Part shown: positions 1,290 through 63,881 of the stretch, one piece after another
How positions within the stretch are numbered: position 1 is the stretch's first letter
Layout: every line of letters starts with the position of its first letter
Assembly (NCBI GenBank): GCA_033856235.1
Contig: JAWVFI010000078.1
Location: 6,062 to 70,061 of the forward strand
DNA: 64,000 nt
Direction: 5' to 3'
Source of the DNA: Blastocatellia bacterium
GTDB lineage: Bacteria; Acidobacteriota; Blastocatellia; Pyrinomonadales; Pyrinomonadaceae
Program-made: the position numbers and the translations under genes
The notes under the pieces: generated by a model
What the model was told of the DNA's origin: nothing
Seen by the model: only the letters and a program-made list of their open reading frames with translations
Database searches by the model: none

Positions 1290-2057
<768 letters not shown>

Positions 2058-25200: not shown

Positions 25201-25293
25201 GTCAGAACCGCCTGCCGTAGCGGGCGGTAGATCTCTCGGCGTTACTTGGCTCTTTTGAACATTCAACCGCCCGCTACCCCAGGCGGTTCTGAC
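25201..25293. repeat. Palindromic doublet, family B copy 1 (GTCAGAACCGCCTGCGGTAGCGGGCGGT)
   Basis: gtcagaaccgcctgccgtagcgggcggt (25201-25228) pairs with aaccgcccgctaccccaggcggttctgac (25265-25293). Confidence 0.85.
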
Positions 25294-25406
25294 TTAGTCC
25301 TCCAGCAGATTCCCGCTAAACAGCGCCTGGCCGCCGAGGCTGGTATAAAAACCGTAAGCCTTTGATGTCTCCGTTGTACACATCGTATCTGCTTTGCACA
25401 GAAACT

Positions 25407-25513
25407 CCGATTCGTGTTCTTGGTGTTTCGTGTGATTTCGTGAATCGTATGACTGCGATTTGTCAGCGCACGATTCACGAAAGTACACGAACTCCCACGA
25501 CGCGAAGCGAATC
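25407..25513. repeat. TTCGTGA/CACGAAx-word inverted repeat, copy 1
   Basis: The left arm ccgattcgtgttcttggtgtttcgtgtgatttcgtgaatcgt pairs with the right arm cgcacgattcacgaaagtacacgaactcccacgacg. The element is homologous to 42096-42202. Confidence 0.75.
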
Positions 25514-25658
25514 AGTCAGAACGGAAACGGCCAATGGGCACAAGAAAGAGGCGCCCCCGCTCAGTGACGCCCCTACCTGGTTTCTCTGCGAGCCTCCTGG
25601 AAAATCTGCAACCAGGAAACTCCGACGCTCTGCCCGCTCCTGCCTCCTGCTCCTGCCG

Positions 25659-27479
25659 CTACTGCCCACACTCGGCATTCGAATGTGTGCGAACTGAACT
25701 AAACCGGTCCTGATATTCATCCGAAGTCAGAAATCCACAAACCATCGCGCGATAACCGCTGATGTCATTGGGCAGTTTGTTGTTCAGAACATTCAGCCAG
25801 AACTGATAGCCTTCCGGCTCCGGGTCCCGGCGCAAGTAACCGTAGTATTGCATCAAGACAAACGCCGGATTGAACTCGCGCGTCTTGAACTCCGGAATCT
25901 CGATTACATCCAGCAACACTTGCGCGCGAGTCTTACTGCCATCGATCAGCGCCTGAGTTTCCGTTTGCCGTTGCGCGTCGAAAGTCGCGCTGGTCAATCC
26001 CGCCGTGTCGAAAAGTTTGTTCACGAAATCCGCCGGCGCCATCCCTCCGGGATAGAAGTTCAGAAACGCTCCGCCCTGGACGAATTCGTTGGCATAGCTG
26101 ACGGTGCTGTCGTGCAACTGCGGCCCGCCGATCAGCCTCCCACGTTCGACCATGAAATGTGTATAGCTGGGAATCATTCCCAGCGCCGCGCGGTTCAAAC
26201 GATAGATGACATAGCCAGTTTCCTGGAACTCCTGCTCAACAAAGAAGGCGGCTGAAATTCCAATCCGCCGTTCACGCAAGCAGAGGGCATCCCTGCCGCA
26301 CTTCGCCAACTCGCCGGTCCAGTAGTCCAATCCCTCTTGATCCGGCACCCGATTTAGAAAGTCAGCGTAGTGCTGCCGAACAAACGACTGGGCGTCGTCC
26401 GTGGTATTCGACGTCGGAGCCACCGCATCGTTGTCTATGATGCTTAACGTTACGAAACCCGGTGAACCAAGAAATGCTCCTCCGGTTGGACTGCTGAGTT
26501 GCAGAAACAGTGTGTGGGTCCCCTGAACGTAGGCGTTTTCAGTAATCAAAACGGTGAACCTCTTGCTGGTTTCGCCCGGCGCGAAGTTCAGCATGCCACC
26601 GGCCAGCGTGTAGTCGCGCTTTTGGGTGGCCACACCAGCGTCGCCTGTAAAGTAGAAGACACTCGCCGGGCTCGACGTGTCGCCGGTGCGCGTGACCGTA
26701 ATCTTGGCGCTGCCATCGCCTTCGCCTACCGAATAGCTCGAAGCGCTGAATTGAATATAACTGGGCGGCGTGGCCGACGCCGCAGCCTTGAACACGGCGG
26801 GCTGGTTTCCGTTCTGACTGCTCAGGGTCCAAAAGGAAGGAGTGAAAGTGTAGCCGGGTTTCTGAGGCGTAAGTGTGACCATCGTGTTCCCCGTCTCCGC
26901 AATTCCGAGAGCGAGGATAAGATTTCCAAACGCGTTGGTTTGCGGCAACCCAAACGTCGCGCCATTAATTTGAATTGCCACGCTCGCGATGCCAGTCCCC
27001 GAACTATCCTCCACCCGAAGATTCACTTGCATGTATGGGTCGAGCCGCAGGTTCTTCGTTTGATTGCTGTTCAAGTTACTGACATTCGTGGCGAACGCAG
27101 TGTACTGGCCCGGCTTGGAAGGTGACAGGGTGTAATTCCCGCCCGCCGCGAGATCCGAGAAAGAGTAATTGCCGTTGGCGTCAGTTCCCGTCACCGCCGA
27201 CTGTGTTCCGCTAAGCGTTACATTGGCCCCGCTGATTCCATTATTGAACCCGTCCGTCACGCGCCCCGAAATCGAATAAGTCTGAGCCTGAGCGTGTGCC
27301 GGCGCGACCAAAGAGATCGCGACCACAGCAGTGATAAAAAGAACCCGAAGGACTTGAGCCGCAAAGGGCAAAGCGCAGAGCGGAAAGCGCGGCACCTGAC
27401 CCTTTGCTCGTACCCCTCGACCCTTTGCTCTTACCCCCTGGCACTTGGCTGCGTTTGAATGAGAAAGCATTGACAACAT
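25659..27479 (-). CDS. Secreted CarboxypepD_reg-like / Calx-beta / DUF4214 protein
   Basis: Signal-like VLFITAVVAISLVAPAHA, YSISGRVTD-type Ig-like repeats, a Calx-beta-like block and a DUF4214-like tail ending THSNAECGQ (the giant protein ends THSNAECGP). The first ~36 codons overlap an inverted repeat, so the true start may be the TTG at 27371. Confidence 0.8.
   Translation of the reverse strand: MLSMLSHSNAAKCQGVRAKGRGVRAKGQVPRFPLCALPFAAQVLRVLFITAVVAISLVAPAHAQAQTYSISGRVTDGFNNGISGANVTLSGTQSAVTGTDANGNYSFSDLAAGGNYTLSPSKPGQYTAFATNVSNLNSNQTKNLRLDPYMQVNLRVEDSSGTGIASVAIQINGATFGLPQTNAFGNLILALGIAETGNTMVTLTPQKPGYTFTPSFWTLSSQNGNQPAVFKAAASATPPSYIQFSASSYSVGEGDGSAKITVTRTGDTSSPASVFYFTGDAGVATQKRDYTLAGGMLNFAPGETSKRFTVLITENAYVQGTHTLFLQLSSPTGGAFLGSPGFVTLSIIDNDAVAPTSNTTDDAQSFVRQHYADFLNRVPDQEGLDYWTGELAKCGRDALCLRERRIGISAAFFVEQEFQETGYVIYRLNRAALGMIPSYTHFMVERGRLIGGPQLHDSTVSYANEFVQGGAFLNFYPGGMAPADFVNKLFDTAGLTSATFDAQRQTETQALIDGSKTRAQVLLDVIEIPEFKTREFNPAFVLMQYYGYLRRDPEPEGYQFWLNVLNNKLPNDISGYRAMVCGFLTSDEYQDRFSSVRTHSNAECGQ
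27361..27436. repeat. GCAAAGG/CCTTTGC-word inverted repeat
   Basis: gcaaagggcaaagcgcagagcggaaagcgc pairs with gaccctttgctcgtacccctcgaccctttgctcttaccc. It overlaps the nominal 5' end of the 25659-27479 ORF. Confidence 0.75.
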
Positions 27480-27690: not shown

Positions 27691-27763
27691 AACTCCTGAC
27701 TCCTGCAGCTTGCCTCCTGCAGCTTGCCTCCTGCTTCCTGCTCCTGCTCCTGCTCCTGCCGCG
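27691..27763. repeat. CTCCTG(C)-word tandem tract
   Basis: The 14-mer ctcctgcagcttgc occurs twice (27700-27727), then a gctcct run (27733-27759). Two short hairpins follow (27781-27803 cggaaaggc/gcctttccg and 27819-27833 ggaggc/gcctcc). Confidence 0.75.
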
Positions 27764-27894: not shown

Positions 27895-29301
27895 ATGTTA
27901 GGTGAAAATTTGCCTCTAACCGCAGTATCTGCAGTCCTCGCTCTCATCTATCTTCTCCAACCTTCTCCGGCCGCATCGCAAACAGTTGCGCCGCCCCCTA
28001 ACGAAGTCCGGGCCCTCTGGGTCGTGCGCACCACGCTGACCTCACCCGAAAGAATCCGCACCATGGTCAACGCCGCCGCCGACAACGGCTTCAACACAAT
28101 CATCGTCCAGGTGCGCGGCCGCGGCGACGCCTACTACCGCTCGCATCGAGAGCCGCGCGCCAACGAACTGAAAGATCAACCCGCAGACTTCGATCCATTG
28201 GCAGTGACTTTGACAGAAGCAAAGCGCCGAGGCTTGAAAGTCCACGCTTGGGTCAACACCAGCCTCCTCGCAAACCTGGACGCGCTTCCCACAAATCCCG
28301 AGCACATCTACAACAAGCATCCCGAGTGGCTCGCCGTCCCCCACCCAATCGCCGCCGAGCTCTACAATATATCGCCGAAAGACCCGCGCTACCGGGCCCG
28401 CATCGTCGAGTGGTCCAAAGCCAACACAGCCGAACTCGAAGGTGTCTACACCGGCCCCGCGAATGCAAAAGTCCGCGAACACATTTACCAAATCTGGATG
28501 GACATTCTGAAGAACTACGATGTAGACGGCATTCACTTCGACTACATCCGCCTAGCCAGCCCCGACTTCGACTACAGCCGCACGTCCCTGGATAACTTCC
28601 GCAAATGGCTGGATCAGCGAGGAGCAGGTGCAGTCAGCAGGAGCAGCCGGAGCACTGTGCCTGGCGAGTCTCGCGGTACTCGCCAACCTTCCCTCTTTGC
28701 CCTTAGCTCTTTGCCCGGCGCAGCCGGCCTTCCCCCTTCCCTCTTTGCCCTTAGCCCTATGCCTGGCCAGCCCTTTGCCCTGCGCCCTTTGCCCGAGGGC
28801 TCCGCCCTCGCCCTCGCCGAAGCCTACCCCGAAAGATTCGCCGACTTCCAACGCGAACAAATCACCACGTTGGTCCAACGCATCTACCGCGAAGTCAAAC
28901 GCCGCAAACCAAACGTCACCGTCTCCGCCGCAGTCTTCGCCAACGACGAAAACGCCTACACGCGAAGATTTCAAAACTGGCGCCGCTGGCTCCAAATGGG
29001 AATCCTCGATGTAGTCTGCCCCATGGCCTACACGACAGACACAGAGATCTTCAAAACCCAAATCAAAACTGCCACCCAACTCGCCCACGCGAATAACAAA
29101 CAAATCTGGTCCGGCATGGGCGCCTACCGCCTCCCCATAGAATCCACAGTGGAAAAAATAAACGCCGCCCGATCCCTTAAATCAGACGGCATAATCCTCT
29201 TCTCCTACGATTTCACAATTCGCCCCAGCGCCCTCAACCCCAACGCCGACTACCTCGAACGAGTCCGCCATAACGCATTTGAGCGCCCGGGACCTGAATG
29301 A
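27895..29301 (+). CDS. Glycoside hydrolase-like family 10 (GHL10/YngK-like, DUF187) protein
   Basis: VRALWVVRTTL, GFNTIIVQVRGRGDAYY, VHAWVN and DGIHFDYIRL motifs with a signal-like N-terminus. It contains an in-frame low-complexity insert encoded by repeat-type DNA (28615-28800). Confidence 0.8.
   Translation: MLGENLPLTAVSAVLALIYLLQPSPAASQTVAPPPNEVRALWVVRTTLTSPERIRTMVNAAADNGFNTIIVQVRGRGDAYYRSHREPRANELKDQPADFDPLAVTLTEAKRRGLKVHAWVNTSLLANLDALPTNPEHIYNKHPEWLAVPHPIAAELYNISPKDPRYRARIVEWSKANTAELEGVYTGPANAKVREHIYQIWMDILKNYDVDGIHFDYIRLASPDFDYSRTSLDNFRKWLDQRGAGAVSRSSRSTVPGESRGTRQPSLFALSSLPGAAGLPPSLFALSPMPGQPFALRPLPEGSALALAEAYPERFADFQREQITTLVQRIYREVKRRKPNVTVSAAVFANDENAYTRRFQNWRRWLQMGILDVVCPMAYTTDTEIFKTQIKTATQLAHANNKQIWSGMGAYRLPIESTVEKINAARSLKSDGIILFSYDFTIRPSALNPNADYLERVRHNAFERPGPE
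28621..28795. repeat. Repeat-word DNA (GCAGGAG then CCTTTGC words) embedded in frame in the GHL10 gene
   Basis: ggagcaggtgcagtcagcaggagcagccggagc is followed by ccctctttgcccttagc, which occurs twice, and by ccctttgccctgcgccctttgccc. The translation is SLFALSSLPG...SLFALSPMPGQPFALRPLP. Confidence 0.75.
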
Positions 29302-38945: not shown

Positions 38946-38958
38946 GTTTGCTCCTTAT

Positions 38959-39052
38959 GTCGGAACCGCCTGCGGTAGCGGGCGGTTGATCGCTCGGTTC
39001 TACTTCATTAACTAAGCCAGTTCAACCGCCCGCTACCGCAGGCGGTTCTGAC
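38959..39052. repeat. Palindromic doublet, family B copy 2
   Basis: gtcggaaccgcctgcggtagcgggcggttgatc (38959-38990) pairs with tcaaccgcccgctaccgcaggcggttctgac (39022-39052). Confidence 0.85.
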
Positions 39053-39053
39053 A

Positions 39054-41525
39054 TTACTCCCACGCTGGCGTGACCTGGCCCTGTGCGTCGTGCCAGTGCG
39101 GCGCCCACGCGAGGGTCAGAGTCATCACTGCTATGTTTGCCTTGGTCGGCTTCAACACCAGGGTCTCAAAAACCTCGGCCTGGCTATTCGATAAACTTTC
39201 CAGCGCCTGGGTTTCAGAATTGAATTGCGCGTTGAGATCGGCGAACTGCTGGCTGACAGCCCCAACCGTTTCCTGCGCGCGGCCAATGTCAGCGGATTCC
39301 TTCATGGAACGGCCGACGCCGCGAACGGCGGTGGTGGCCCGGCCCAGCGACGTGGCGCTGATCGCTTTGCGGCCCATGAACGACGATAACAAAGTGGCGC
39401 CGAATGAAATTGCTGTTTGCAGCTTCTGACCCCTGGCCTGTTCAGCTTCGCGTTCGACTGTTTGCTCAGCGCGCCGCTTGCGCTCCTCGAGGGCGGCAAA
39501 CTTCGGCGCATATTTTTGTCGCAAGCGTTCCACGGCGGCATCGCGCTGCTCGCGCGCGGCCTGCTGAGTGCGAAGTCGAAAGTCCTGCTCGGACTCTCCG
39601 GGGTTTGAGACCGCCTTCAAACTCGCACTCTTTTGCAGCTCGACCTTCTGATTGCGATAGAGCCACGCGGCAAAGTCTTTCTTCCATGTTTCGTAGTTCT
39701 TCGCTTTGGCAGCCGGTTTCGGCAACTCGGCAAACTGCGCGCCATCGGCCGGCGTTGGCTCCAGGTCGGCGACTGCGACATCGACGTTGGTGGCATTTTC
39801 CCAATCGACCGGAACGACCCCGTCATTGATGTTTGCGAGGACCGTCAGCTCCTGGGTCGTGTCGATCTCTTTTTTGTCCGTGAATCTCACCTGGGCCGAA
39901 CTGAGGACCATTGGGTGATAGACAAGAGTGGCGCCGCTTTGGTCGCTGCGAACCGGGACGAAGTATTGCGAGATTTCCGCAGGCAATACGGGCCGCTGAG
40001 GTTGCGCCGAAGGTTTGGCGGCTGGCGCGGCTTCAGCGCTAGTCGGTGCAGTGGAATCGGGAGACGCGGCCGAAGCTTTTACTGCTGCCGGCGATGTACC
40101 CTCGGCCGCCTTGATCGGATCCATCAGCGTTTTGATCTGCTTCTTAGTTAAAGGACCGCGGAGGTACGACATCGCCCAACGCGTCTCAAATAATTCCGGC
40201 CCGTCTTCGTGCACGTTGTTCAGCATGAAGATGCGGTTTCCCAGTCCGGCCAGTGTCTGTTCCATCTGTTGTCGATCAAACTTCAACCCAGTTCCCGCGG
40301 CGACGCCTTCCAAGCCTTCGATCACTTTTGATTTGTCACGCTCGGTCTGCAGTCGGCCAATGAACCAGGTGCCGGTATTCGACAGGCCCTTGTAATCAAG
40401 GTCCACCGGATTCTGTGTAACTAAGACCACGCCCAATCCAAATGCGCGCCCCTGTTTCAGCAAGGTCATGAGCGGCAACTTCGACGGCGGATTCGCCACC
40501 GGGGGAAAGTAACCCAGGATCTCGTCCATGTAGAGAATGGCCCGCAGGCTGGTGGTTCCCGACTGGGTTCGCATCCATCCCAGCACTTGATTGAGCAGGA
40601 GCGACACGAAGAACATGCGCTGGGAATCTTCCAGCATGTGCGCGATCGAGAAAATCGCCAGCCGCGGTTTGCCGCTCGACGTGTACAGCAGTTGTTGAAT
40701 GTCGAGCGGTTCACCTTCCATCCACGAACTGAAGCTCGGCGCCGCCAGCAGATTGTTAAGGGCCATCGCCAGTTCAAATCGATCCTTCGCCGGGAAGAAG
40801 GAATCAAGATCCATAACGCCAACTCTCGTCACCGGCGGCGACTGAATTTGAGTGATCAGGGCGGCAATATCCAGGTCGGTGCCGGCCATCCACGCCTGGT
40901 TGAGGATGGTCGAAATCAGAATGTGCTCGCGGCTTTTGAAAGGGTCAGCTTGAATACCCAGTAAACCCAGCAGGCTGGTGGCGGTGCTGCTGACTCGTTC
41001 AGCAAGAGCCTCTTCATCATCACGAATCGCTGGGGGCGGAGCAGAAAAAGACTTGAGGATAGAAACTGGAAATCCCGCGTTGCTGCCGGGCGTGTAGATC
41101 TTAAAATCGGCCGCCTCTCGCAGACGCTTTATCCGCGCGCCGTCCTGTCCCCATTTCGCCAATCCGTCTTTCCAGAGCTGGGCCTGTTGCGCAGCGTAGT
41201 CAGCTGCTGACATATTTTTCTTAGCCGCGTCTTCTTCGTTGATCCATGGCGCGAAGTCCTCGGGCTTCAGATCCGGGAACGTCAGCATCAAGTTTGCGAG
41301 ATCGCCCTTCGGATCGATCACGATGGCCGGAATGCCGTCAATTGCCGCCTCTTCCAGGAGTGACAGACAGAGGCCGGTCTTGCCGCTGCCAGTCATCCCG
41401 ACGCAGACGGCATGCGTGACCAGATCCTTGGAGTCGTAGAGAACCAGGCCTTCTTTGGCTTGCTTCGTTTCGAGATCGTAGGGGCGGCCCAGGTAAAAGG
41501 CGCCAAGTTTTTCAAAGTCGTCCAT
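39054..41525 (-). CDS. HerA/FtsK-superfamily (DUF87-like) P-loop ATPase with a long C-terminal coiled-coil extension
   Basis: The start at MDDFEKLGAFYLGRPYD (41525) avoids the heptamer repeat upstream. Walker A is VGMTGSGKTG and Walker B ILYMDEILGY, followed by VVLVTQNPVDLDY. About 300 C-terminal residues are Ala/Glu/Gln-rich. Confidence 0.8.
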   Translation of the reverse strand: MDDFEKLGAFYLGRPYDLETKQAKEGLVLYDSKDLVTHAVCVGMTGSGKTGLCLSLLEEAAIDGIPAIVIDPKGDLANLMLTFPDLKPEDFAPWINEEDAAKKNMSAADYAAQQAQLWKDGLAKWGQDGARIKRLREAADFKIYTPGSNAGFPVSILKSFSAPPPAIRDDEEALAERVSSTATSLLGLLGIQADPFKSREHILISTILNQAWMAGTDLDIAALITQIQSPPVTRVGVMDLDSFFPAKDRFELAMALNNLLAAPSFSSWMEGEPLDIQQLLYTSSGKPRLAIFSIAHMLEDSQRMFFVSLLLNQVLGWMRTQSGTTSLRAILYMDEILGYFPPVANPPSKLPLMTLLKQGRAFGLGVVLVTQNPVDLDYKGLSNTGTWFIGRLQTERDKSKVIEGLEGVAAGTGLKFDRQQMEQTLAGLGNRIFMLNNVHEDGPELFETRWAMSYLRGPLTKKQIKTLMDPIKAAEGTSPAAVKASAASPDSTAPTSAEAAPAAKPSAQPQRPVLPAEISQYFVPVRSDQSGATLVYHPMVLSSAQVRFTDKKEIDTTQELTVLANINDGVVPVDWENATNVDVAVADLEPTPADGAQFAELPKPAAKAKNYETWKKDFAAWLYRNQKVELQKSASLKAVSNPGESEQDFRLRTQQAAREQRDAAVERLRQKYAPKFAALEERKRRAEQTVEREAEQARGQKLQTAISFGATLLSSFMGRKAISATSLGRATTAVRGVGRSMKESADIGRAQETVGAVSQQFADLNAQFNSETQALESLSNSQAEVFETLVLKPTKANIAVMTLTLAWAPHWHDAQGQVTPAWE

Positions 41526-41535
41526 GAGTTTTACG

Positions 41536-41649
41536 GGTGAATGGTAAATGGTAAATAGTGAATGCTGATAGCAGCCGAACAGGGATCCAGGCAAAGGTAA
41601 TAGTAAAGAGCAGCTATCAATATTTACTATTTACCATTTACCATTTACC
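41536..41649. repeat. (GGTAAAT)n / (ATTTACC)n heptamer-word inverted repeat
   Basis: ggtgaat ggtaaat ggtaaat agtgaat (41536-41563) pairs with atttact atttacc atttacc atttacc (41622-41649), with a 58-nt centre. Confidence 0.9.
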
Positions 41650-41653
41650 CACA

Positions 41654-41976
41654 CTATCGTTGTTTTGCGATTACCATAGCCGAAATTTGTTCGTAAGTGG
41701 CTTCCGGAATAATGTTCTTCCGGACCAGTTCGGTCTTCTCGCGATAGGGGCGGCCGTCGATGATTTTTTGAGCGTAGGCTTCGCCAATTCCTGGCAGTCC
41801 GATCAATTCAGTCTTATTGCAGAGTTCAGATCGACTAAGCCCGCGTTGTTGTGATCGTTACCAAGCACCGCGCGCTTGAGATTGGCGTGGCTGTTCTCAG
41901 TACGGTTTCCGCATCCGATAGCGACGAGCACCGCCGCGAACAGAACAAAGGCAAGAAACTTTTCCATTGCGTGCAT
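41654..41976 (-). pseudogene. ComEA-like helix-hairpin-helix lipoprotein gene with an apparent 1-nt frameshift
   Basis: Frame A gives M(HAM)EKFLAFVLFAAVLVAIGCGN...GLVDLNSA, then a stop at 41803. Shifting one nucleotide near 41813-41821 continues [45 protein letters not shown] to the stop at 41654. Confidence 0.7.
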
Positions 41977-42095
41977 CATCCTACGCCTATGACGAATTAC
42001 TTTGTCCCGGGGGCCGTTAGGATACCAGCAAATTAGCAGAAAGTCAGAATTCGGAAATGGTATAATCGCCAACCCTATTAGCACGATGTTGTACT

Positions 42096-42202
42096 CTGAT
42101 TTCGTGTTCTTTGGTGAGCTTAGTGATTTCTTGGATCGTATGCCTCCGATTCGTAAGCGCACGATTCACGAATTACACGAAAACTCACGAAGTGTCACGA
42201 AC
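42096..42202. repeat. TTCGTGA/CACGAAx-word inverted repeat, copy 2
   Basis: ctgatttcgtgttctttggtgagcttagtgatttcttggatcgtatg (42096-42142) pairs with cgcacgattcacgaattacacgaaaactcacgaagtgtcacgaac (42158-42202). It aligns arm-for-arm with 25407-25513. Confidence 0.75.
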
Positions 42203-42351
42203 TAATAAATCGTGATTGACTCAGCGGACTGATAGAAATATCTTTGGTGCGTCTTTGTTAGTGCCTGCTTCTAATTTGCGCGGGGGCCTTGCGTTTCCGG
42301 GCGGTTTCACATTAGTCGCATTCTTAAAACCGCCACGCGGACTCTGACATC

Positions 42352-42882
42352 ATGAAAAATTTCTTGAGCGCAATGACGCTTCTACTGGTTTGCGCTGCAG
42401 CCGTTGCAGCGCAGGGCACCTGCGTGCGCTATCTCGAAACCGGCGCCGGTTTTTCGTTTTGCCCACCTGATGCGTGGACGATTCAGGAACAGGCCGGCGA
42501 GAAATACAAAGTTATGTTTGGCACCGGCGCAAACTTCAAGCCCAACATCAACATTAAGGAGCAGACGAGTGCGGGAACTTTGGCCGAGTATGCGGAACTG
42601 GCGAAGAAACTAATCGTGTCCAAAGAGAACAGGGAAAAGTTGGGCGCGACGACGCTGGTGGCGTTGGATCAATCAGAGTTCATTACTACCTCGGGTTTAT
42701 CGGGAATAAAAGTTACCTATCAAACTGAATTTAAGGGTTACCTAATTCGGAGCCTGCAGTATTACTTCGAGTTAAAGGGCGGGATAAAAATAATCGTTAC
42801 CGGTACCAGCCTGGTCGCGGACAAGGAAACGCTGGATCCGCTTCTCGACCGGTCGCTAAAGACTTTTCGGATTGAGAACTAG
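42352..42882 (+). CDS. Hypothetical secreted protein (possibly a PsbP/DcrB-like fold)
   Basis: Signal peptide MKNFLSAMTLLLVCAAAVAAQG; 176 aa. The FSFCPPDAWTIQ...KPNINI pattern is reminiscent of DUF1795/PsbP-like proteins. The assignment is weak. Confidence 0.5.
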   Translation: MKNFLSAMTLLLVCAAAVAAQGTCVRYLETGAGFSFCPPDAWTIQEQAGEKYKVMFGTGANFKPNINIKEQTSAGTLAEYAELAKKLIVSKENREKLGATTLVALDQSEFITTSGLSGIKVTYQTEFKGYLIRSLQYYFELKGGIKIIVTGTSLVADKETLDPLLDRSLKTFRIEN

Positions 42883-42910
42883 GCAGGGTTTTCCAGATTA
42901 AGTCTAACTA

Positions 42911-43087
42911 TTCAAGCTCCTCACTGGGACCGCGGGTGCCCCCCCGCAACCCTCTCGCGGCGTCAATTTGCAGTAAGAACAATTTTTCGCGCTTTGCGCT
43001 CAAAGCGGGCGGGACGCCCGCGCCCCCAGTGAAGAGCTTGAACCCGGCAATGACAAATGAAATATGGAAACTGAGAAATGGAAAATG
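42911..43087. repeat. Palindromic element family F plus an (xAAAxTG)5 heptamer tract
   Basis: ttcaagctcctcactggg (42911-42928) pairs with cccagtgaagagcttgaa (43025-43042), enclosing GC-rich hairpins (cgctttg/caaagcg, gcgggcgggacgcccgc). Then acaaatg aaatatg gaaactg agaaatg gaaaatg runs 43053-43087. Confidence 0.75.
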
Positions 43088-43112
43088 CTTCTGATTCACC
43101 CTGATTGGCTAG

Positions 43113-44837
43113 CTACACTCCCGCCGCCGCGATCGCGGCGCCTTCTGCCTGCCGTTTGACGATTACCAGGGTGATATCGTCGGCCGCCGGAGTGCCCTGC
43201 GAAAACTTTGTCAGCGCCGATTCGATCCGGTCGCGAATGCCCGCAGCGGACGCATCGAGGTTGCGTGCCACAACGTCGTACAAACGCGTCGGCCCAAATT
43301 CTTCGCCGCTGGGGCTTTGCGCCTCAGTGACACCGTCCGAATAAATCACCAGCACATCGCCGTATGAGAGGCGGGTCCTGCCCTCACGGTAATCAGCATC
43401 GGGCATGATGCCCAACGGGAGGCCGCCCGCAGCCAGTTGTTCCATGGTGCCCGCGGCATGGACGATCAAGGGAGGATTGTGGCCGGCGTTCAAGAACGAC
43501 AGCTCGCCGGTTTTCGGCTGCAGCTCGGCGTAGAAGAGCGTGATGAAACGATTCGCAGGAATGTTTTCCGCAAGATAGCGGTTAACGCCGGAGATCGTTT
43601 TCAATAATGAGTCATGGGACGCCGCCTGAGCATGTACGGCCGCGTGCAGCGATGACATCAGCAGTGCGGCAGCCGCCCCTTTGCCTGAGACATCGCCCAG
43701 CGCAACGATCAGCCGGCCGTCCTCGCGCGGAATGAAGTCGTAGTAGTCGCCGCCAATTTCATAACAGGGGAAGCTGATGCCCTGCAGCTCGTATCCGGCA
43801 ACGATGGGCGGCGCCGTTGGTTGGAAGCGTTGCTGAATCTCGCTGGCAACTTGAAGCTCGTGCTCCATGCGCTCGCGCTGTAGTTGCTCATCCAACAGGC
43901 GGGTGTTTTCCACCCGGATGGCGGCCACCGAGGCCAGGGTCGTCAGCACCTTCAAATGATCTTCAGTGAAGCGGCCTTCGGCCATGGGCGAGTCGGCATA
44001 GATGATGCCGAATATTTTTTCGCTAACGCCCAGGGGCACGGCCAGGACTGAGCGCACGCCCTGCAGCATTACTGTCCCACTCATGAATCGCGGATCGGCT
44101 TGGGCATCAGAGGTGAGTACTGACTTGCCGCGCACTACGACTTCCTCGATTACGGAACGACTGACGCGAATCTCACCGACTTCGCCGGCGCGGTCACGTA
44201 AGCGAGCCACGGCCACCTGCAATTCGGTACTGTCCTTCTCGCGCATCATGATCATACAACGATCCGCGGGCACCGCTTCGAACACGAGGCTGACCACCTG
44301 CTCCAGCGTCTCATTCAAGGTGGCGGACGAGAGCAGGGTAATGCCCACTTTGCTGATCAACGCCAGCAGGTCGCTGTGCCTGGAAGCGCGTTGGGCGGCG
44401 ACTTCTTCCGGCTTACTGCGCGCGCCTTCGATGGCTTCTAAAAGTCCGGAGGTGGTGCGATCGGAAGAGGTCAGGGCGATGGTGGCTTCCGGCAAAGACG
44501 TGGCGCTGTTGTCGGTGATCATGGTGGCGCCGGTACCAGAACGATAGGTACCGTCATCAAACATGATTTCCGTTTCACCGATTTGAATGCGGCCGCCGAC
44601 ACTCAGCGGCAGGGTCCCATCCACGGCAGCGCCGTTGTAAAGCGTGCCGTTGGCCGAACCCAGATCCTGCAGGACATAGCCGTCGCCTTCGCGCCGAACT
44701 TCGGCATGAACGCGTGAAGCAAAAGGATCGGGAATGCACAAGTCATTGCGCGCTGAGCGACCAATCGTGATGCGCAAGCGTCCCAAAGGGAAATTCTCTG
44801 ACGGACGATCGGGATATTTGACTATTAATTCAGGCAT
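43113..44837 (-). CDS. FHA-GAF-PP2C (SpoIIE-type) serine/threonine phosphatase
   Basis: N-terminal FHA (ITIGRSARNDLCIPDPFASRVHAEV...LGSANGTLYNG), a central GAF-like region, and a C-terminal PP2C/SpoIIE region (GGDYYDF, ALGDVSGKG, VIYSDGVTEA, DDITLVIV). Confidence 0.88.
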   Translation of the reverse strand: MPELIVKYPDRPSENFPLGRLRITIGRSARNDLCIPDPFASRVHAEVRREGDGYVLQDLGSANGTLYNGAAVDGTLPLSVGGRIQIGETEIMFDDGTYRSGTGATMITDNSATSLPEATIALTSSDRTTSGLLEAIEGARSKPEEVAAQRASRHSDLLALISKVGITLLSSATLNETLEQVVSLVFEAVPADRCMIMMREKDSTELQVAVARLRDRAGEVGEIRVSRSVIEEVVVRGKSVLTSDAQADPRFMSGTVMLQGVRSVLAVPLGVSEKIFGIIYADSPMAEGRFTEDHLKVLTTLASVAAIRVENTRLLDEQLQRERMEHELQVASEIQQRFQPTAPPIVAGYELQGISFPCYEIGGDYYDFIPREDGRLIVALGDVSGKGAAAALLMSSLHAAVHAQAASHDSLLKTISGVNRYLAENIPANRFITLFYAELQPKTGELSFLNAGHNPPLIVHAAGTMEQLAAGGLPLGIMPDADYREGRTRLSYGDVLVIYSDGVTEAQSPSGEEFGPTRLYDVVARNLDASAAGIRDRIESALTKFSQGTPAADDITLVIVKRQAEGAAIAAAGV

Positions 44838-44848
44838 GTTTGTTAGAT

Positions 44849-45020
44849 CGTAAACCGAAAACTGTAAACCGTAAACGGTGGGCCGTGAACTGTAAACCGG
44901 CGCACGATTTTCAGGTCCCTAACACTCGCTGCTTACCGGTTCACTGTGCTCCATCTACGATTCACGATTCTCGGTTTACGTTCTCAGTGTACGGTTTACG
45001 GTTTAAGGTTGACGGTTTAC
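44849..45020. repeat. GTAAACC/GTGAACC heptamer-word inverted repeat, 'empty' copy
   Basis: The left arm cgtaaaccgaaaactgtaaaccgtaaacggtgggccgtgaactgtaaaccgg (44849-44900) pairs with a right arm ending cggtttacggtttaaggttgacggtttac (to 45020). It shares the 17-mer ccgtgaactgtaaaccg with 56284-56300. Confidence 0.85.
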
Positions 45021-46324
45021 TGGACCCCACTGTTCCTGCGGCGATCGAATTCCCTGCCCAATTTTTCTGCAAGTCGCTTTGCCTCGTCTCTATGCTTCCC
45101 GTCCAGTGCGGCGCGTTGCGCCGCTGCCAGGGCCCGCAGTAACTCCGGGCGGGGAAGGTTTTTCGGATCGCGTCCCGCAATAATCGATACGCTCAGCGAA
45201 TAATTATGATCTTGATCCTGCTGGGCCAGCGTCACTGCGGCCTTTGTCGCCACCGCGGTCTGCGTAGCCCCACCGGGTGACTCGGTCTTTCCCCCCGCGG
45301 TGCTTGCCGAGCTCGCCGGCGCCGGCAGGGGCAGTCGCGCATTCACTGACACATTCGATGCTGTTGGCCCCGGCAGTTGCGTCAAACGCTGCTTCGCGGT
45401 CGCGACGATGTCATCGGGCGCGCCGCTCAGGAGCTTTTGATATTCGACGCGCGAGTCTTCGGTGTAACCTGCAAGGCGCAAAGCGTCGGCGTACTCAAGC
45501 TGGTCTCGCGGGGAAAACGCCGTATCGCCCATCGCACTTTTCAGGCGGCGATAGCTGTCAATCGCATCCGCATAGAGTTGCCCCTGGAATTGCAGCGAAG
45601 CCAGCATATGCAGCGTGTCAACGTCTCCCGGATCCCTTTGCGCTGCCGCAAAGTATTCATCGATCGCCTGCCGGCGTTGGCCATTACGCATGAAGGCCGC
45701 GCCCAACAGACGGTGTGCCTCGACATTTGCAGGATCCAGATTGACGACCGAATGCAGACGCTCAATCGCTTCCTTGATGTTACCTGCGGCCAGCAACGAG
45801 CGCGCTTCACCCAACTGCTGAGCCACCAACCGGCTCTGGTCCACGTTGGCTACCAGCGGCCCCGCGTTCGAGTCACGATGCCGTAAATAATAAACCAACA
45901 AGCCGGCGGCCAATGCCAGAAAGAAGAATGTCAGCAGTACTATGGGCCACCAACGTTTTCGCTTCGCCTGGGGTTGGGCGGCCGCAGGTAAGACCAGCGA
46001 CGAAGTGGTTGGCGCAGCGTATTGTTCACCGCTGTAATCCGCCGCCAATCCATCGTCCCCATTGGCGGTGACCGGAATTTGCGCCAGGCGCTGGTTCCGC
46101 AGAATCGAGTCCAGTTCGGCGCTGCCAACGCGCGCGGTGTTGGCGTGCCGCTCATCCGCCAAACCATCAGTCGTGCGCCCGTCAATGGACAGCGGCACAG
46201 TTTGCGCCAGCGGCGAGATTGGGCCACTTAAGCCGCCCGCAGTTTTCAATGGGGCGCCGCAAAGCCGGCAGAAGCGCGCCTCTGTCGGGCTGGGGGAATT
46301 ACAACTTGGACACAAGTACGCCAT
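45017..46324 (-). CDS. Zinc-ribbon / single-pass membrane / TPR repeat protein
   Basis: N-terminal CPSCNSPSPTEARFCRLCGAPL zinc ribbon, TM helix WWPIVLLTFFFLALAAGLLVYYL, then TPR-like repeats (AIERLHSVVNLDPANVEAHRLLGAAF...). Confidence 0.75.
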   Translation of the reverse strand: MAYLCPSCNSPSPTEARFCRLCGAPLKTAGGLSGPISPLAQTVPLSIDGRTTDGLADERHANTARVGSAELDSILRNQRLAQIPVTANGDDGLAADYSGEQYAAPTTSSLVLPAAAQPQAKRKRWWPIVLLTFFFLALAAGLLVYYLRHRDSNAGPLVANVDQSRLVAQQLGEARSLLAAGNIKEAIERLHSVVNLDPANVEAHRLLGAAFMRNGQRRQAIDEYFAAAQRDPGDVDTLHMLASLQFQGQLYADAIDSYRRLKSAMGDTAFSPRDQLEYADALRLAGYTEDSRVEYQKLLSGAPDDIVATAKQRLTQLPGPTASNVSVNARLPLPAPASSASTAGGKTESPGGATQTAVATKAAVTLAQQDQDHNYSLSVSIIAGRDPKNLPRPELLRALAAAQRAALDGKHRDEAKRLAEKLGREFDRRRNSGVQ

Positions 46325-46333
46325 TATTTTCGC

Positions 46334-46369
46334 GATCTCAAATTTGAGATCTCAGATCTCAGATCTCAG
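46334..46369. repeat. (AGATCTC)3 heptamer tract with an inverted copy
   Basis: gatctcaaatttgagatc is a palindrome (46334-46351). Three perfect agatctc units occupy 46347-46367. Confidence 0.9.
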
Positions 46370-46375
46370 CAAGCT

Positions 46376-46903
46376 TCAACGCGGCGTGCGGCGCACGCGA
46401 GTGGCGACGCGCCGGGCGCCTTCGCGCACCACGACGGTTCCGGCAATGATGTCATGCAGCGCGCGGCCCTCCGCGTTGAACGCCGCAATCAAGAAACCAA
46501 TGCCCAGCGTCAGTATGGAAGCCGGGTAGCCGACAAAATGACGGAGCAGTGTCTGGGGAAAACTCAGTTCCCTGCCGTCGATGCGCTCGATGCGAATACC
46601 GGCGGCCCACTTTCCCAGGGTCTGGCCCCAAACGGCAGCGAGGAACACAAAGTTCAAAGCGGCCAGCAGAATGGCCGTAATGATGCCCAGGGTTTCTGCG
46701 GTACCGCCGGCGGAGCGCGCGCCGCCACCCAGCATCCGAGCGATGAGCACGCTGATAGCGACTACGCAGATGACGACGATGTAATCGATCAGCAGAGCGC
46801 CGCAGCGAAGCAGAATGGGCGCGCGAAACCTCTCGAGATGGGCCAGAGCTTCGGCACGGCTGATCGTGCGCGGGCGCGGAAGAGTGGTCGGGTCAACTGT
46901 CAT
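46376..46903 (-). CDS. RDD family membrane protein
   Basis: 175 aa with RCGALLIDYIVV (RDD-type motif), three hydrophobic helices and a C-terminal ALHDIIAGTVVV. Confidence 0.8.
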   Translation of the reverse strand: MTVDPTTLPRPRTISRAEALAHLERFRAPILLRCGALLIDYIVVICVVAISVLIARMLGGGARSAGGTAETLGIITAILLAALNFVFLAAVWGQTLGKWAAGIRIERIDGRELSFPQTLLRHFVGYPASILTLGIGFLIAAFNAEGRALHDIIAGTVVVREGARRVATRVRRTPR

Positions 46904-46907
46904 ATAA

Positions 46908-47055
46908 AGTTTCGAGTTTCGAGTTTCGAGTTTCGAGTTTTGGGTTTCGAGTTTTGGGTTACGAGTTACAGTTTCGGGTTTGGTTCGTTCGATCTGATTC
47001 CGACGTCATGAATTTTCGCTTTGAACTCGAAACTCGAAACTCGAAACCCGAAACT
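46908..47055. repeat. (AGTTTCG)n / (CGAAACT)n heptamer-word inverted repeat
   Basis: Four perfect agtttcg units plus about seven degenerate units (46908-46984) pair with cgaaact cgaaact cgaaacc cgaaact (47028-47055). Confidence 0.9.
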
Positions 47056-47063
47056 TCCCCGCC

Positions 47064-48725
47064 TTATCCAACTAAAAAATGCAATGTGGTTTCGCCCAGG
47101 CGGAGTTTGTCTCCACTGTCCAGCACCCGCGGTTGCCTGGGCGCCAGCCGGATTGCATCGTTAATGACTGTGCCATTGATCGAACCCAGGTCTTCGACCA
47201 GAAAGGTCTCGCCTTCGCGCCAAATCCGAGCATGCCGGCGCGACACTTTGGTTTCGGGATCAAAGCGCGAGAGATCCACTTCGGGAAAAATATTTGACTG
47301 CGGGTCCGTACGTCCCAATAGATTGCTTTCCTTCTGCAGATGAAACGAAGCATCAAGCTCTGTAGTTCCCGCTACAACCAGTTTTGCGGTTCCACGCGCC
47401 GCGACCACGGCCCCAGTCCCCATTCCGATCGGTTGTCGAGCGCCGCAATGGGCACAGAAAATATCGTCCGCAGCGATCCTGCCGCCACAGAAACCACAAT
47501 ACACAGTTTCCACCTTGACTGTTTCGCCGCCCAGGTCGTTGGCCGGCATTCCATAACTGACTTGTCCGGTCCCTAACTTTTCCAGGTGGGCCACCAATGT
47601 GTCGCGCATTTCCGCAGCCGAGCGAAAGCGGTTCTCAGGTTTGTATTCCACCGCCCGCATCAATATCCGTTCCATCTCCGTTGACATCGCCGGGTTGATC
47701 TGGCGCGGCCGGAGGTTTTTAGTGAAATCAAAGATCAGTAAGGGATTGTCCTGAGGATCGGCGCCAGTCGCTAGATGAAACAGGGTGGCGCCCAAGCTAT
47801 AAATATCCGATCGCGGTTCCACCTGGCCGCTAAACAACTCCGGCGGGGCGTATCCCATTGTGCCGACAGCAGTGACGCCTTTTTCCTGCTTGGTCACCCA
47901 ACGCGCTATGCCAAAGTCAATCAACATCACGCGGCCTGAGTTGCCGTCAATCATCAAATTTGCCGGTTTCAAGTCGCGGTAGATAATCGGCTTCGGTCGC
48001 GTGTGCAGGTAATGCAAGACATCGGCTATCTGGATTCCCCAATCGGTCACGTTCTTTTCGTCAACCCGGCCTCCCGGAGCGTTTCTAACCCGGGACGAAA
48101 AGTCGCCACCGGAAATATATTTCATCACCAGATAGAAGCGTCCGGCAGTTTCATCGTAGAAGTAATCGTAGATAGTCGGGATCGAAGCGTGCTCCAACGA
48201 AGTCAGCAAGAGAGATTCGCGCTTGAAATCACTGATTGCCTTTTCATGTTGCACGTCGTCAATGTGCGATTCGATCATTTCCTTGACGGCCCGCGGAGCG
48301 TCACCCAGATTTCGATCGCGCGCCAGGTACACCGCGCCCATGCCGCCGCCTCCGATGCGTCGCACTATTTCGTAGCGTCCATTCAAGCAAGTGCCCGCCT
48401 CCAGTTGCTTCGCCTTTGAGTGCTTGCTGGAACTCTCGTTCGCGCGGACGGTTGGTTGCACGGGAGGAACTGTATCGCCGTCGCCCAACAGGTCTCCGGT
48501 GGTTATGCTCCGGACAGCAGCTGAGACCCTTTGCTCGTGCGCATCGGTGATGTCCGCATCAGCGGTCGCCTCTGAATTTTCAGGAGAGACTGAGCTGATC
48601 GGAGGCGCGCCTCCTGAGGCGCCCGCTACGGCGGCAGCGCTCTGCTCCGACCGCGGCGTACCGCAGCTTCCGCAGAACTTTTCTTCGGGCGCCAAGGTCG
48701 CGCCGCATTCGCCGCAAATCGTCAT
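47064..48725 (-). CDS. Ser/Thr protein kinase with N-terminal zinc ribbon, internal zinc ribbon and C-terminal FHA domain
   Basis: CGECGATLAPEEKFCGSCG; kinase motifs IGGGGMGAVY, AVKEM, IIYRDLKPANL and DFGIAR; CGFCGGRIAADDIFCAHCG; and FHA (LLGRTDP...VSRRHARIWREGETFLVEDLGSINGT). Confidence 0.9.
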   Translation of the reverse strand: MTICGECGATLAPEEKFCGSCGTPRSEQSAAAVAGASGGAPPISSVSPENSEATADADITDAHEQRVSAAVRSITTGDLLGDGDTVPPVQPTVRANESSSKHSKAKQLEAGTCLNGRYEIVRRIGGGGMGAVYLARDRNLGDAPRAVKEMIESHIDDVQHEKAISDFKRESLLLTSLEHASIPTIYDYFYDETAGRFYLVMKYISGGDFSSRVRNAPGGRVDEKNVTDWGIQIADVLHYLHTRPKPIIYRDLKPANLMIDGNSGRVMLIDFGIARWVTKQEKGVTAVGTMGYAPPELFSGQVEPRSDIYSLGATLFHLATGADPQDNPLLIFDFTKNLRPRQINPAMSTEMERILMRAVEYKPENRFRSAAEMRDTLVAHLEKLGTGQVSYGMPANDLGGETVKVETVYCGFCGGRIAADDIFCAHCGARQPIGMGTGAVVAARGTAKLVVAGTTELDASFHLQKESNLLGRTDPQSNIFPEVDLSRFDPETKVSRRHARIWREGETFLVEDLGSINGTVINDAIRLAPRQPRVLDSGDKLRLGETTLHFLVG

Positions 48726-56282: not shown

Positions 56283-56326
56283 CCCGTGAACTGTAAACCG
56301 TAAACCGTAAACCGTGAACCGTAAAT
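56283..56326. repeat. GTAAACC/GTGAACC heptamer-word arm, left flank of the four-helix-bundle gene
   Basis: cccgtgaactgtaaaccgtaaaccgtaaaccgtgaaccgtaaata. It is the reverse complement of the tract at 56787-56841. Confidence 0.9.
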
Positions 56327-56408
56327 ACAAAAGCACTGTGAGAATCATTTTGGAGATTTCTTAAACTGTTGAAGCTCGCCCCTTCATCATTGCCTAAAGG
56401 AGTTAACG

Positions 56409-56780
56409 ATGCGACCACATGAAAAGCTTGATGTGTGGAGGAAGGCAATTGAGTTTGTTCTGGCGGTTTACAAAGCAACGGAGGGTTTTCCCAAGGAAGA
56501 GAAATTCGGCTTAACATCACAGGTAAGACGCGCTGCTGTATCAATCCCTGCCAACCTGGCCGAAGGCGCTGCGAGAAGCTCGCGCAAAGAGTTCGCTCAT
56601 TTCATCTCTAATGCTCAAGGATCGGCAAGCGAAGTTGAGACAGAACTACTAATCGCCTACCGCCTGGGTTATCTCCCAGAGGAAGAGTATTCCTCGTTAA
56701 GGAAGGCTCATGATGACTTGGGTAAGATGTTGAATGGGCTATCCCGGCATATACGCCAGCGAATAGGCAACAGTTCTTAA
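56409..56780 (+). CDS. Four-helix-bundle protein (23S rRNA intervening-sequence protein / Avd-like family)
   Basis: HEKLDVWRKAIEFVLAVYKATEGFPKEEKFGLTSQVRRAAVSIPANLAEGAAR...GSASEVETELLIAYRLGYL is the typical signature of this family. aaggag precedes the ATG. It is flanked by heptamer inverted repeats. Confidence 0.9.
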   Translation: MRPHEKLDVWRKAIEFVLAVYKATEGFPKEEKFGLTSQVRRAAVSIPANLAEGAARSSRKEFAHFISNAQGSASEVETELLIAYRLGYLPEEEYSSLRKAHDDLGKMLNGLSRHIRQRIGNSS

Positions 56781-56786
56781 ACCCAT

Positions 56787-56841
56787 CCCGGTTTACGGTT
56801 TACGGTTCACGGTTTACGGTTCACGGTTCACGGTTCACGGG
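56787..56841. repeat. GGTTTAC/GGTTCAC heptamer-word arm, right flank of the four-helix-bundle gene
   Basis: cccggtttacggtttacggttcacggtttacggttcacggttcacggttcacggg. Confidence 0.9.
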
Positions 56842-60159: not shown

Positions 60160-60294
60160 GTCAGAACCGCCTGCGGTAGCGGGCGGTTGATCTAGCAAAG
60201 AGCAAAGCGCCATGGTCTTTTCCAGTTCTTGCCCTTTGCCCTTTGCCCTTTGCTCTTCGCGCATTAACCGCCCGCTACCCCAGGCGGTTCTGAC
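60160..60294. repeat. Palindromic doublet family B copy 3, with a nested GCAAAGG/CCTTTGC inverted repeat
   Basis: gtcagaaccgcctgcggtagcgggcggttgatc (60160-60191) pairs with aaccgcccgctaccccaggcggttctgac (60266-60294). The interior holds agcaaagagcaaagcgcc (60195-60212) against gccctttgccctttgccctttgctct (60231-60256). Confidence 0.85.
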
Positions 60295-63643: not shown

Positions 63644-63657
63644 TTGTTTCCGATGAG

Positions 63658-63814: not shown

Positions 63815-63881
63815 TTGGCACGGTTGACCCGCATGGTTCTGGTCGCATAGCATTGAGTATCGAAACGGATGCAGGTGAATC

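Follow-up and report, generated by a model that had tools for sequence, protein, structure and literature searches.

The stretch of DNA considered here, 64,000 nucleotides from a contig of a Blastocatellia bacterium of the Pyrinomonadaceae, a soil acidobacterium (the window, below), carries on its minus strand a string of genes whose spacers are filled with long inverted repeats, and the arms of those repeats are themselves built from tandem words of seven letters. Pfam names the genes as an FHA-kinase (47064-48725), an RDD protein (46376-46903), a TPR protein (45017-46324) and an FHA-GAF-PP2C/SpoIIE protein (43113-44837), in agreement with the co-directional string proposed by a first-pass annotation that worked from the letters and their open reading frames (ORFs); a HerA-like ATPase gene (39054-41525) lies on the same strand. 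One hairpin, in the TPR-PP2C spacer, overlaps the TPR stop codon (45017-45019) and ends 7 nt short of the PP2C start at 44837; another, in the kinase-RDD spacer, has its stem set off by 7 nt from the kinase stop codon and by 3 nt from the RDD start; a third occupies the spacer between a ComEA-like gene (stop near 41654) and the HerA-like gene (start 41525). The loops of the four elements between 41536 and 47055 hold no ORF. Elsewhere in the window, between two MacB/FtsX permease genes, sits an element with arms of the same kind (56283-56841) that the first-pass annotation overlooked, and within it lies a gene.

What are these hairpins, and how did they come to stand so exactly between genes? 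The elements of the gene string are gene-less members of a class of heptamer-armed hairpins that resembles the intervening sequences (IVSs) of 23S rRNA, and the only recognisable cargo of such hairpins is a four-helix-bundle protein of the family PF05635/TIGR02436, here called IVP (for intervening-sequence protein).

Hairpins made of seven-letter words

Period 7 is the sole repeat period enriched within the window, which has seven strict period-7 tracts; the other periods between 3 and 15 have at most one tract each, leaving aside 14, which is twice 7, and shuffled sequence gives none. Every tract that the first-pass annotation had listed is there. With the window's PP2C protein we retrieved 80 genome and 80 metagenome loci (161 related loci overall), the genome loci being metagenome-assembled genomes of Acidobacteriota, nearly all titled Blastocatellia or Pyrinomonadaceae. 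Tract statistics refer to the window and 80 related loci, together 1.45 Mb, with genes predicted by a codon-usage-scored caller whose start codons are approximate. There we count 307 tracts of period 7 as against 1-34 for the other periods from 4 to 13 and for 15, an enrichment that extends beyond the window; in the window and the related loci alike, head-to-tail 7-nt units in at least three copies lie far above chance. Some 140 elements result, about one per 10 kb, and 218 of the 307 tracts (71%) are matched within 700 nt by an inverted run of their own word, the loop in between having a median length near 57 nt.

The arms pair in predicted folds, for which each element was compared with 200 dinucleotide shuffles. 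Main elements of the window have predicted stems of 30-50 bp, the long duplexes in polycistronic RNA that the first-pass annotation envisaged, at z -6 to -8 (the three big hairpins of the kinase string, folded as minus-strand RNA, reach -7.9, -7.0 and -6.1); arms also pair at 63686-63820 (z -6.7), 25400-25512 (z -5.0) and 60192-60262 (z -3.9). Its expectation of pairing does not hold throughout: at 46325-46375, 42090-42205, 27355-27440, 43053-43087 and 27693-27760 the fold is weak or absent. Intrinsic terminators were considered and rejected, for a terminator scan calls none of the hairpins, its number of calls is at chance, and the 3' arms run into the next start codon. A scan of the window with Rfam covariance models at gathering score gave no match, and no rRNA.

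Clearly intergenic tracts number 265 of 307, and almost all the others lie within 100 nt of a predicted gene end; per kilobase of spacer, tract density is 1.65 between co-directional genes, 1.27 between convergent genes and 0.33 between divergent ones. About 111 inverted-repeat elements are spread over 809 co-directional spacers, which amounts to an occupancy near 14%, and in these spacers the main stem (median 50 base pairs) begins right at the upstream stop codon (median distance 0 nt, interquartile range -2 to +3) and leaves a median gap of 12 nt to the start codon that follows. The arms differ in composition when read in the direction of transcription, G+T making up 63% of the 5' arm and A+C 60% of the 3' arm.

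The words are many, at least seven classes in the window's 64 kb and 113 canonical classes in the 1.45 Mb, and they recur. The first-pass annotation saw a different word in each spacer; this was overstated, because the words form recurring classes, the commonest (AAACTCG, AAAGACC, AAAGTAC, AATCGGC and ACCACTG) each being present in many genomes. Inside the window AAACTCG comes back at 24388 and GTAAACC/GTGAACC at 56284-56840; AGATCTC makes seven tracts in seven genomes, and AGTTTCG is also the word of the orthologous kinase-RDD spacer of one related locus (L001). Neighbouring spacers that flank one gene often share a word class (L063, L068, L069, L016 and L072), for example AATCGGC on either side of a MacB gene, a pattern that suggests local spread, or exchange between adjacent spacers.

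Particular spacers are occupied far more often than the average. Of 135 orthologous kinase-RDD spacers, 84% exceed 60 nt in length, a tract can be detected in 55%, and in 69% the predicted fold lies below -25 kcal/mol; the words vary from genome to genome, and a few spacers hold no element and measure just 0-36 nt. The MacB-MacB spacer holds a hairpin in nearly all of about 70 genomes, again with many different words, and in some genomes the hairpin is replaced by a palindrome that is not made of heptamers.

A four-helix-bundle gene between the arms

The gene inside the element at 56283-56841 encodes a protein homologous to the Xanthomonas campestris protein XCC0516, whose structure is solved (PDB 2GSC; E 2.7e-32), and weakly homologous to Avd, a protein of diversity-generating retroelements; it has more than 6000 close relatives. 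By composition the gene looks foreign: its GC content is 49% as against 55.6% for the window, no gene in the window has a lower codon-usage score, and it is equipped with a strong, canonical AAGGAG Shine-Dalgarno sequence, something that only about 28% of predicted starts in the genome have and that the host genes for the RDD, TPR, PP2C and HerA-like proteins lack.

The tie between gene and arms is systematic. A tblastn search with the window's IVP over 2.16 Mb of loci finds eight PF05635 genes at seven independent sites, and heptamer tracts flank all eight, on both sides in six and on the downstream side only in L052 and L035; over the roughly 12 independent Pyrinomonadaceae sites examined, arms are present at every one, and both arms at ten. 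Complementary tracts on both sides are otherwise rare around genes (7 of 1085 predicted genes), and six of those seven are large genes that happen to lie between two neighbouring spacer elements; the sole one shorter than 200 aa is an IVP gene. Homologues with 69-76% identity stand in other gene contexts, all of them with arms: between small genes (L115), between a peptidase M28 gene and metG (L184), between mrdA and rodA (L186), after a peptidase M29 gene (L187) and after a PPIase gene (L188).

The word, moreover, is not arbitrary with respect to the protein. In the clade of the window's IVP the words share a GT(G/A)AA core (CCGTGAA/CCGTAAA, CGTAAAT/CGTGAAT, AGTGAAT/AGTAAAT), and of the four contexts L184, L186, L187 and L188, three have words with this core, which we write GTRAA, and L188 has GTGACAG; IVP genes at 39-46% identity have unrelated words (ACTCAGG, GGTGACG, CTGATAG). 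Among the gene-less hairpins of the window, three are of the same GTRAA class as its IVP element (41535-41650, 44845-45020 and, taken together, the pair at 25407 and 42096), and its AGTTTCG, AGATCTC, GCAAAGG and CTCCTGC elements fall outside it. By eye, nothing in the 44903-44971 loop of the gene-less GTAAACC hairpin resembles the leader or body of the IVP gene. At L187, a complete gene-less CCGTGAA/CCGTAAA hairpin (about 1867-1960) lies directly downstream of the IVP gene, with direct copies of the word upstream, a layout that puts a gene-bearing and a gene-less unit side by side.

Beyond the Acidobacteriota, we inspected ten plasmid-borne IVP genes and a set of Xanthomonadaceae loci, and in most of these examples too the gene is enclosed by such a hairpin. 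Inverted heptamer arms stand at the IVP gene in Anabaena sp. 90 (between cas6 and cas4), Geminocystis, Stanieria, Aulosira and Nostoc punctiforme, and octamer arms in Gemmatirosa and in Picosynechococcus (between cas10 and cmr3); a replicon of Azospirillum lipoferum carries a true 23S rRNA IVS, with arms GACGGAT GACAGAG GACGGAG GACAGAA. In Xanthomonas and Stenotrophomonas, a gene of the XCC0516 family lies between accB and accC, with GGGAATC GGGAGTG GAGAATC GGGAATC upstream and the mirrored complement downstream, and this word is the word of the approximately 90 GGGAATC repeats dispersed in the Xanthomonas genome; the accB-accC element is perfectly mirrored, unlike the acidobacterial arms. Judged by these sequences, then, the heptamer word tracks the lineage of the IVP protein, with a GT(G/A)AA core here and GGGAATC alongside XCC0516 in Xanthomonas. 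In several phyla IVP genes are co-directional members of well-known operons: cas6/cas4 (L170, L172), cas10/cmr3 (L171), accB/accC (L179-L183) and mrdA/rodA (L186). The family has repeatedly been flagged as CRISPR-associated (PMC3936711, PMC10910872), and that reported association may simply be insertion into operon spacers. A link between heptamer hairpins and PF05635 was found, in the literature searched, only for Coxiella.

Table 1. Heptamer elements and tracts of the window, with the segment folded and its score where given
Feature	Position	Strand	Arms or setting	Predicted fold
Gene-bearing element, (CCGTAAA/CCGTGAA)n and (TTTACGG/TTCACGG)n arms	56283-56841	+	arms 56283-56325 and 56799-56841, 43 nt, 93% complementary; (TTTACGG/TTCACGG)n words from 56789 to 56841	
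IVP gene, 123-aa ORF	56409-56780	+	PF05635 "23S rRNA intervening-sequence protein", E 2.6e-41; TIGR02436 "four helix bundle protein"	
(GGTAAAT/GGTGAAT)n-armed hairpin	41535-41650	-	arms 41535-41575 and 41610-41650, 41 nt, 88% complementary	41528-41656, -50.9 kcal/mol, z -7.9
GTAAACC/GTGAACC-armed hairpin	44845-45020	-	arms 44845-44902 and 44927-44984, outer layers to 45020	44838-45022, -72.2 kcal/mol, z -7.0
(AGATCTC)3 tract and one inverted unit	46334-46369	-	within the 51-nt RDD-TPR spacer; weak hairpin	46325-46375, z -1.7
(AGTTTCG)n/(CGAAACT)n-armed hairpin	46907-47056	-	arms 46907-46939 and 47024-47056, 33 nt, 97% complementary	46904-47063, 34-bp stem, -58.9 kcal/mol, z -6.1
TTCGTGA/CACGAA (CGTGAAT-like) hairpin	25407-25513		paralogue of 42096-42202	25400-25512, -47.2 kcal/mol, z -5.0
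TTCGTGA/CACGAA hairpin, degenerate paralogous copy	42096-42202		divergent intergenic region	42090-42205, z -2.1
(TTGCCCT)4/AGCAAAG hairpin	60195-60257	-	nested within the loop of a palindrome of REP-like type (60160-60294); the genes on both sides encode oligopeptide ABC ATPases	60192-60262, z -3.9
GCAGGAG/CTCCTGC-armed hairpin	63686-63820	-	directly upstream of the methylmalonyl-CoA mutase gene (62033-63685)	63686-63820, -79.4 kcal/mol, z -6.7
Degenerate GCAAAGG/CCTTTGC element	27361-27437			27355-27440, z -1.1, not significant
(CTCCTGC)~10 direct tract	27693-27760		no inverted partner	z +1.1
(xAAAxTG)5 direct-only tract	43053-43087	-	downstream of the PP2C stop codon	z +0.8
(AAACTCG/AAACCCG) tract, 4.6 units	24388-24419	+	inside UvrD-like helicase ORF 22099-24588	

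Some members of Table 1 are halves or have found their way into genes. The tract at 43053-43087, read on the minus strand, consists of CATTTxx words and is half an element; complete hairpins of the CATTTGT class occur in L003, L009 and L072. The tract at 24388-24419 codes for a low-complexity linker that joins the UvrD_C domain to the PcrA/UvrD tudor domain, and at 28611-28818 GCAGGAG-type and CTTTGCC-type words make up an extra segment of about 78 aa in a GHL10 glycosyl-hydrolase-like domain (ORF 27895-29301), which looks like a repeat element absorbed in frame into the coding region. A separate palindrome resembling repetitive extragenic palindromic (REP) sequences (GTCAGAACCGCCTGCGGTAGCGGGCGGTTGA and its complement) has three copies in the window, at 25201-25293, 38957-39054 and 60160-60294, with arms of 31-33 nt that are 90-97% complementary; related sequence lies inside the kinase-RDD spacer of L079. 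The ComEA-like helix-hairpin-helix gene (41654-41980, minus strand) has an apparent frameshift near 41803-41806, after "VDLNSA...", and is either a pseudogene or the product of an assembly error.

Slippage, selection or insertion

Copy-number change had to be read from close pairs of other loci, since the window has no strain-level twin: its exact protein leads only to its own contig (JGI Ga0467038_0000120), and its nearest relatives have 93-94% PP2C identity. In such pairs a single arm differs by 7 nt (L110/L112, 99.7% identical) or by 14 nt (L120/L125 and L114/L135), uncoordinated with the other arm, and this bears out the slippage that the first-pass annotation had put forward. Larger changes are also seen: strains that are 95-99% identical in the flanking genes differ by the nesting, loss or replacement of whole elements. 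L087 has GTCAGTx/GACCACx where L089 has CTTTGTx/ACAAAGx or the reverse, one set in each, between flanks that are 98-99% identical, and the break points fall at the stop and start codons; L006 and L007 show a whole-spacer replacement of the same kind. In L102, outer GTCAGTG arms enclose an inner CTTTGGT element that L096 has by itself, and nesting recurs in L003, L032, L035, L068 and L077; nested ancestors with differential loss can mimic replacement. Within the window, the segments 25395-25520 and 42085-42210 are paralogous copies of about 80% identity, and their alignment runs through the loop. The comparison of orthologous spacers that the first-pass annotation proposed thus turns up word differences, copy-number changes of 7 and 14 nt and empty spacers; its conjecture of one architecture and one process behind unrelated words is supported; and its mobile-unit idea gains from the loop-sharing paralogues, the nesting and the spacer swaps bounded by stop and start codons, all of which favour insertion of pre-formed units.

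Larger indels (133-206 nt) in pairs 97-99.7% identical were considered as heptamer elements and set aside, as they were coding-region or unrelated differences. One of 206 nt, present in L090 and lacking in L089 (98.5% identical; alignment position 1821), has ends that are complementary to each other (GGGTCAGGG... / ...CCCTGACCCC); it is perhaps a miniature inverted-repeat transposable element (MITE) unrelated to the hairpins.

We lean, with moderate confidence, towards a view in which the hairpins without a gene are related to the IVP-bearing elements as non-autonomous forms, or are their cognate sites, and enter spacers as units before drifting by slippage. They would stand to the gene-bearing elements much as MITEs do to their larger relatives, arriving pre-formed and diverging unit by unit afterwards. 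Once transcribed, their stems of 30-50 bp in polycistronic mRNA would be cut by RNase III, separating or stabilising the cistrons; this is a reasonable supposition, and the analogy is a fair one because 23S rRNA IVSs of the same architecture are cut by that enzyme (PMC4990558). The AC-rich 3' arm beside the start codon might be simply the orientation that translation initiation free of Shine-Dalgarno sequences tolerates.

A number of observations weigh against this insertion of IVP-related units, and they should be met squarely. Most hairpins are gene-less, and most word classes (AGTTTCG, AGATCTC, CTTTGGT and ATTGCCG are examples) have no gene-bearing copy in the loci examined. The window's own IVP element is vertically inherited at one site, for orthologues 86-87% identical stand at the same MacB junction (L162-L168), with the same word family and different copy numbers. 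Neither a transposase or other mobilising enzyme nor a terminal inverted repeat was identified, and a target-site duplication is not established; filled and empty kinase-RDD spacers hint at TTA beside the stop codon, too weakly for a claim. Two of the ten plasmid IVP loci, in Pseudanabaena and Oscillatoria, have mainly direct rather than inverted flanking repeats. At L029 (1363-1972), the loop of an AAACAGC-armed hairpin in the MacB spacer holds an unrelated 147-aa ORF (1435-1878, minus strand) without a Pfam match, which would be a second type of cargo unless it is spurious. The RNA strand carries no signature of its own: sense and antisense folds are equally stable (62 as against 49 elements, Wilcoxon p = 0.23), and G-U pairs number 566 sense and 608 antisense. 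A unit variant in one arm is not, as a rule, answered by its mirror image in the other (2 of 31 elements do better than shuffles), which means that pairing is not finely maintained and that the arms are not kept as exact palindromes.

Could the repeats simply have made themselves? Local inverted duplication followed by slippage in situ would leave neutral junk in which PF05635 genes merely insert or survive, and the exact 7- and 14-nt indels in single arms, the independent evolution of the arms with their unmirrored variants, the missing strand signature, the direct-only tracts at 27693-27760 and 43053-43087 and the tracts in coding linkers are what such a history would leave behind; in many bacteria, besides, heptamers outnumber every other long simple-sequence repeat (as cited in PMC4679880 and PMC4692102). 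We nevertheless consider it unlikely that this is the whole account: slippage alone does not give 71% of tracts an inverted partner of the same word, nor a loop common to paralogous copies, nor different words between flanks 98-99% identical with breaks exactly at stop and start codons, and it leaves unexplained the position tied to stop codons, the avoidance of divergent spacers and a word that follows the IVP lineage over gene contexts and phyla. A somewhat better case, if still a doubtful one, can be made for hairpins selected as intercistronic RNA structures (a processing site, a barrier to 3' exonucleases, protection from Rho or a re-initiation device), with heptamers as the easiest route to a stem and IVP as a passenger. 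Kinase-RDD spacers at 69-84% and MacB-MacB spacers at nearly 100%, against about 14% generally and despite complete turnover of words, argue for selection, as do the non-heptamer palindromes that take the same MacB spacer in some genomes; the base of the stem brings stop and start codons together, and the arms have their compositional bias. The missing strand signature argues against it, since neither G-U pairs nor stability are in excess on the sense strand; the stems are imperfect and allow several pairing registers, some orthologous spacers measure 3-40 nt and are empty without apparent harm, and persistence could as well come from nested re-insertion into existing hairpins. Both accounts are partly compatible with insertion of IVP-related units.

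Arrays bound by a protein at the DNA level, in the manner of iterons or operators, would sit well with the lack of an RNA strand signature, and the tandem heptanucleotide sites of Geobacter metallireducens have been read in just this way, as regulator-binding (PMC2700814); with more than 100 word classes, words that turn over at a single locus, depletion from divergent promoter regions and a place between co-transcribed genes directly after stop codons, we regard them as very improbable here. That repetitive short reads have misled assembly or sequencing is a worry for any window taken from a metagenome contig, and we give it practically no weight: the architecture recurs at the orthologous sites across more than 150 assemblies made independently in many projects, some of the contigs being 1-3.5 Mb long, and the finished genomes and plasmids of cyanobacteria, Azospirillum and Xanthomonas show it as well.

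Relatives among known repeats, and what the hairpins may mean

IVSs of 23S rRNA with an S23p/PF05635 ORF are known from Leptospira and Coxiella. Their anatomy, a stem of flanking inverted repeats with the PF05635 gene in its loop, is exactly that of 56283-56841. The Coxiella IVS has two or three GACAGAT heptamers, their copy number varies between strains, and the 5' cut of RNase III falls at the first repeat (PMC4990558); the Azospirillum arms are likewise of the GACGGAT/GACAGAG type. These IVSs lie in rRNA helices, whereas the window's copies all lie between protein genes, in mRNA spacers, and most acidobacterial copies are gene-less, with many word classes in one genome. The first-pass annotation could match its repeats to no described class, and in this it was wrong: the Coxiella IVS, the P6b stems of the Nostoc trnL intron (PMC4476775), the GGGAATC repeats of Xanthomonas (PMC4692102) and the short tandemly repeated repetitive (STRR) sequences of cyanobacteria are all described cases of heptamer-repeat stem-loops. 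Xanthomonas genomes have about 90 GGGAATC repeats with 70-75 inverted pairs each (Rehm et al. 2015, PMC4692102), intergenic tandem heptamers that are often paired as here and that vary in length between species while keeping their single or paired type. There one G-rich word serves each genome and is read as forming G-quadruplexes, whereas here at least seven words occur within 64 kb and 113 over the family, most of them not rich in G; that GGGAATC units flank the single Xanthomonas IVP gene is a result of the present analysis, and Rehm et al. 2015 are silent on the link.

The P6b stem of the trnL(UAA) intron in Nostoc and Calothrix is alike in its dynamics: it is a complementary stem of 7-nt motifs, with 7-nt gain or loss on one or both sides, insertions into the side of the stem and motif classes replaced repeatedly and independently of phylogeny (PMC4476775), all as in our spacers. 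These cyanobacterial elements are parts of structured RNAs (a group I intron, RNase P RNA) or stand between genes as repeats of a few fixed words; the present elements belong to Acidobacteriota, have many words and are tied to stop codons. TAACTGA repeats of Beggiatoaceae, cyanobacteria and Bacteroidetes (MacGregor 2015, PMC4679880) are forward heptamer arrays that end just upstream of start codons, almost all of them direct (one inverted in 170 sets) with one word per genome, and the related words AACTGAC and ACTGACC are common in 3' arms here. With REP sequences, bacterial interspersed mosaic elements and MITEs the hairpins share a short, intergenic, palindromic form, occasional nesting and dispersed paralogous copies; they differ in having no common consensus (more than 100 word classes) and in the internal periodicity of their arms. 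No gene for a REP-associated tyrosine transposase turned up, no search having been aimed at one.

Cyanobacterial STRR heptamers go back, it is said, to Mazel in 1990 and Vioque in 1997, and Mrazek and colleagues reportedly proposed in 2007 that heptamers are the favoured slippage unit of the replication machinery. Strict STRR sequences are the words CCCCAGT, TTGGTCA and CAACAGT of heterocystous cyanobacteria, and the acidobacterial elements, with different words in a different phylum, are not among them. The architecture itself is therefore known; what is new is its many-word form in acidobacteria, the way it is bound strictly to the stop codon, and a systematic association with PF05635 in which the word is specific to the protein lineage.

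One may go further and imagine, tentatively and with more doubt than belief, that PF05635/TIGR02436 (Avd-like) proteins and heptamer-armed hairpins form together a mobile intervening-sequence system found across bacteria, in which each protein lineage recognises its own word (GTRAA, GGGAATC) and the gene-less hairpins, hundreds in each genome, are its non-autonomous copies. Such a system would colonise rRNA helices and the stop-codon-proximal spacers of operons (accB-accC, mrdA-rodA, cas6-cas4 and the MacB clusters), and probably also the trnL intron and RNase P RNA.

For annotation, the elements account for the long structured spacers between cistrons in Acidobacteria and for low-complexity inserts in some of their proteins, and they counsel caution over cas operons, where the presence of IVP may reflect nothing other than a taste for operon spacers. 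The larger interest lies in two puzzles. We know of no accepted mechanism for the over-representation of heptamers in bacterial genomes and, to our knowledge, TIGR02436/PF05635, a large family with a solved structure, has no known function. An IVP gene inside a heptamer hairpin, a word that follows the protein lineage and gene-less copies that fill the spacers suggest that the two puzzles are one, and a mobile system of IVP and hairpin, if it is true, would account for the long-noted surplus of heptamer repeats in bacteria and, at the same time, tell what a very large orphan protein family does.

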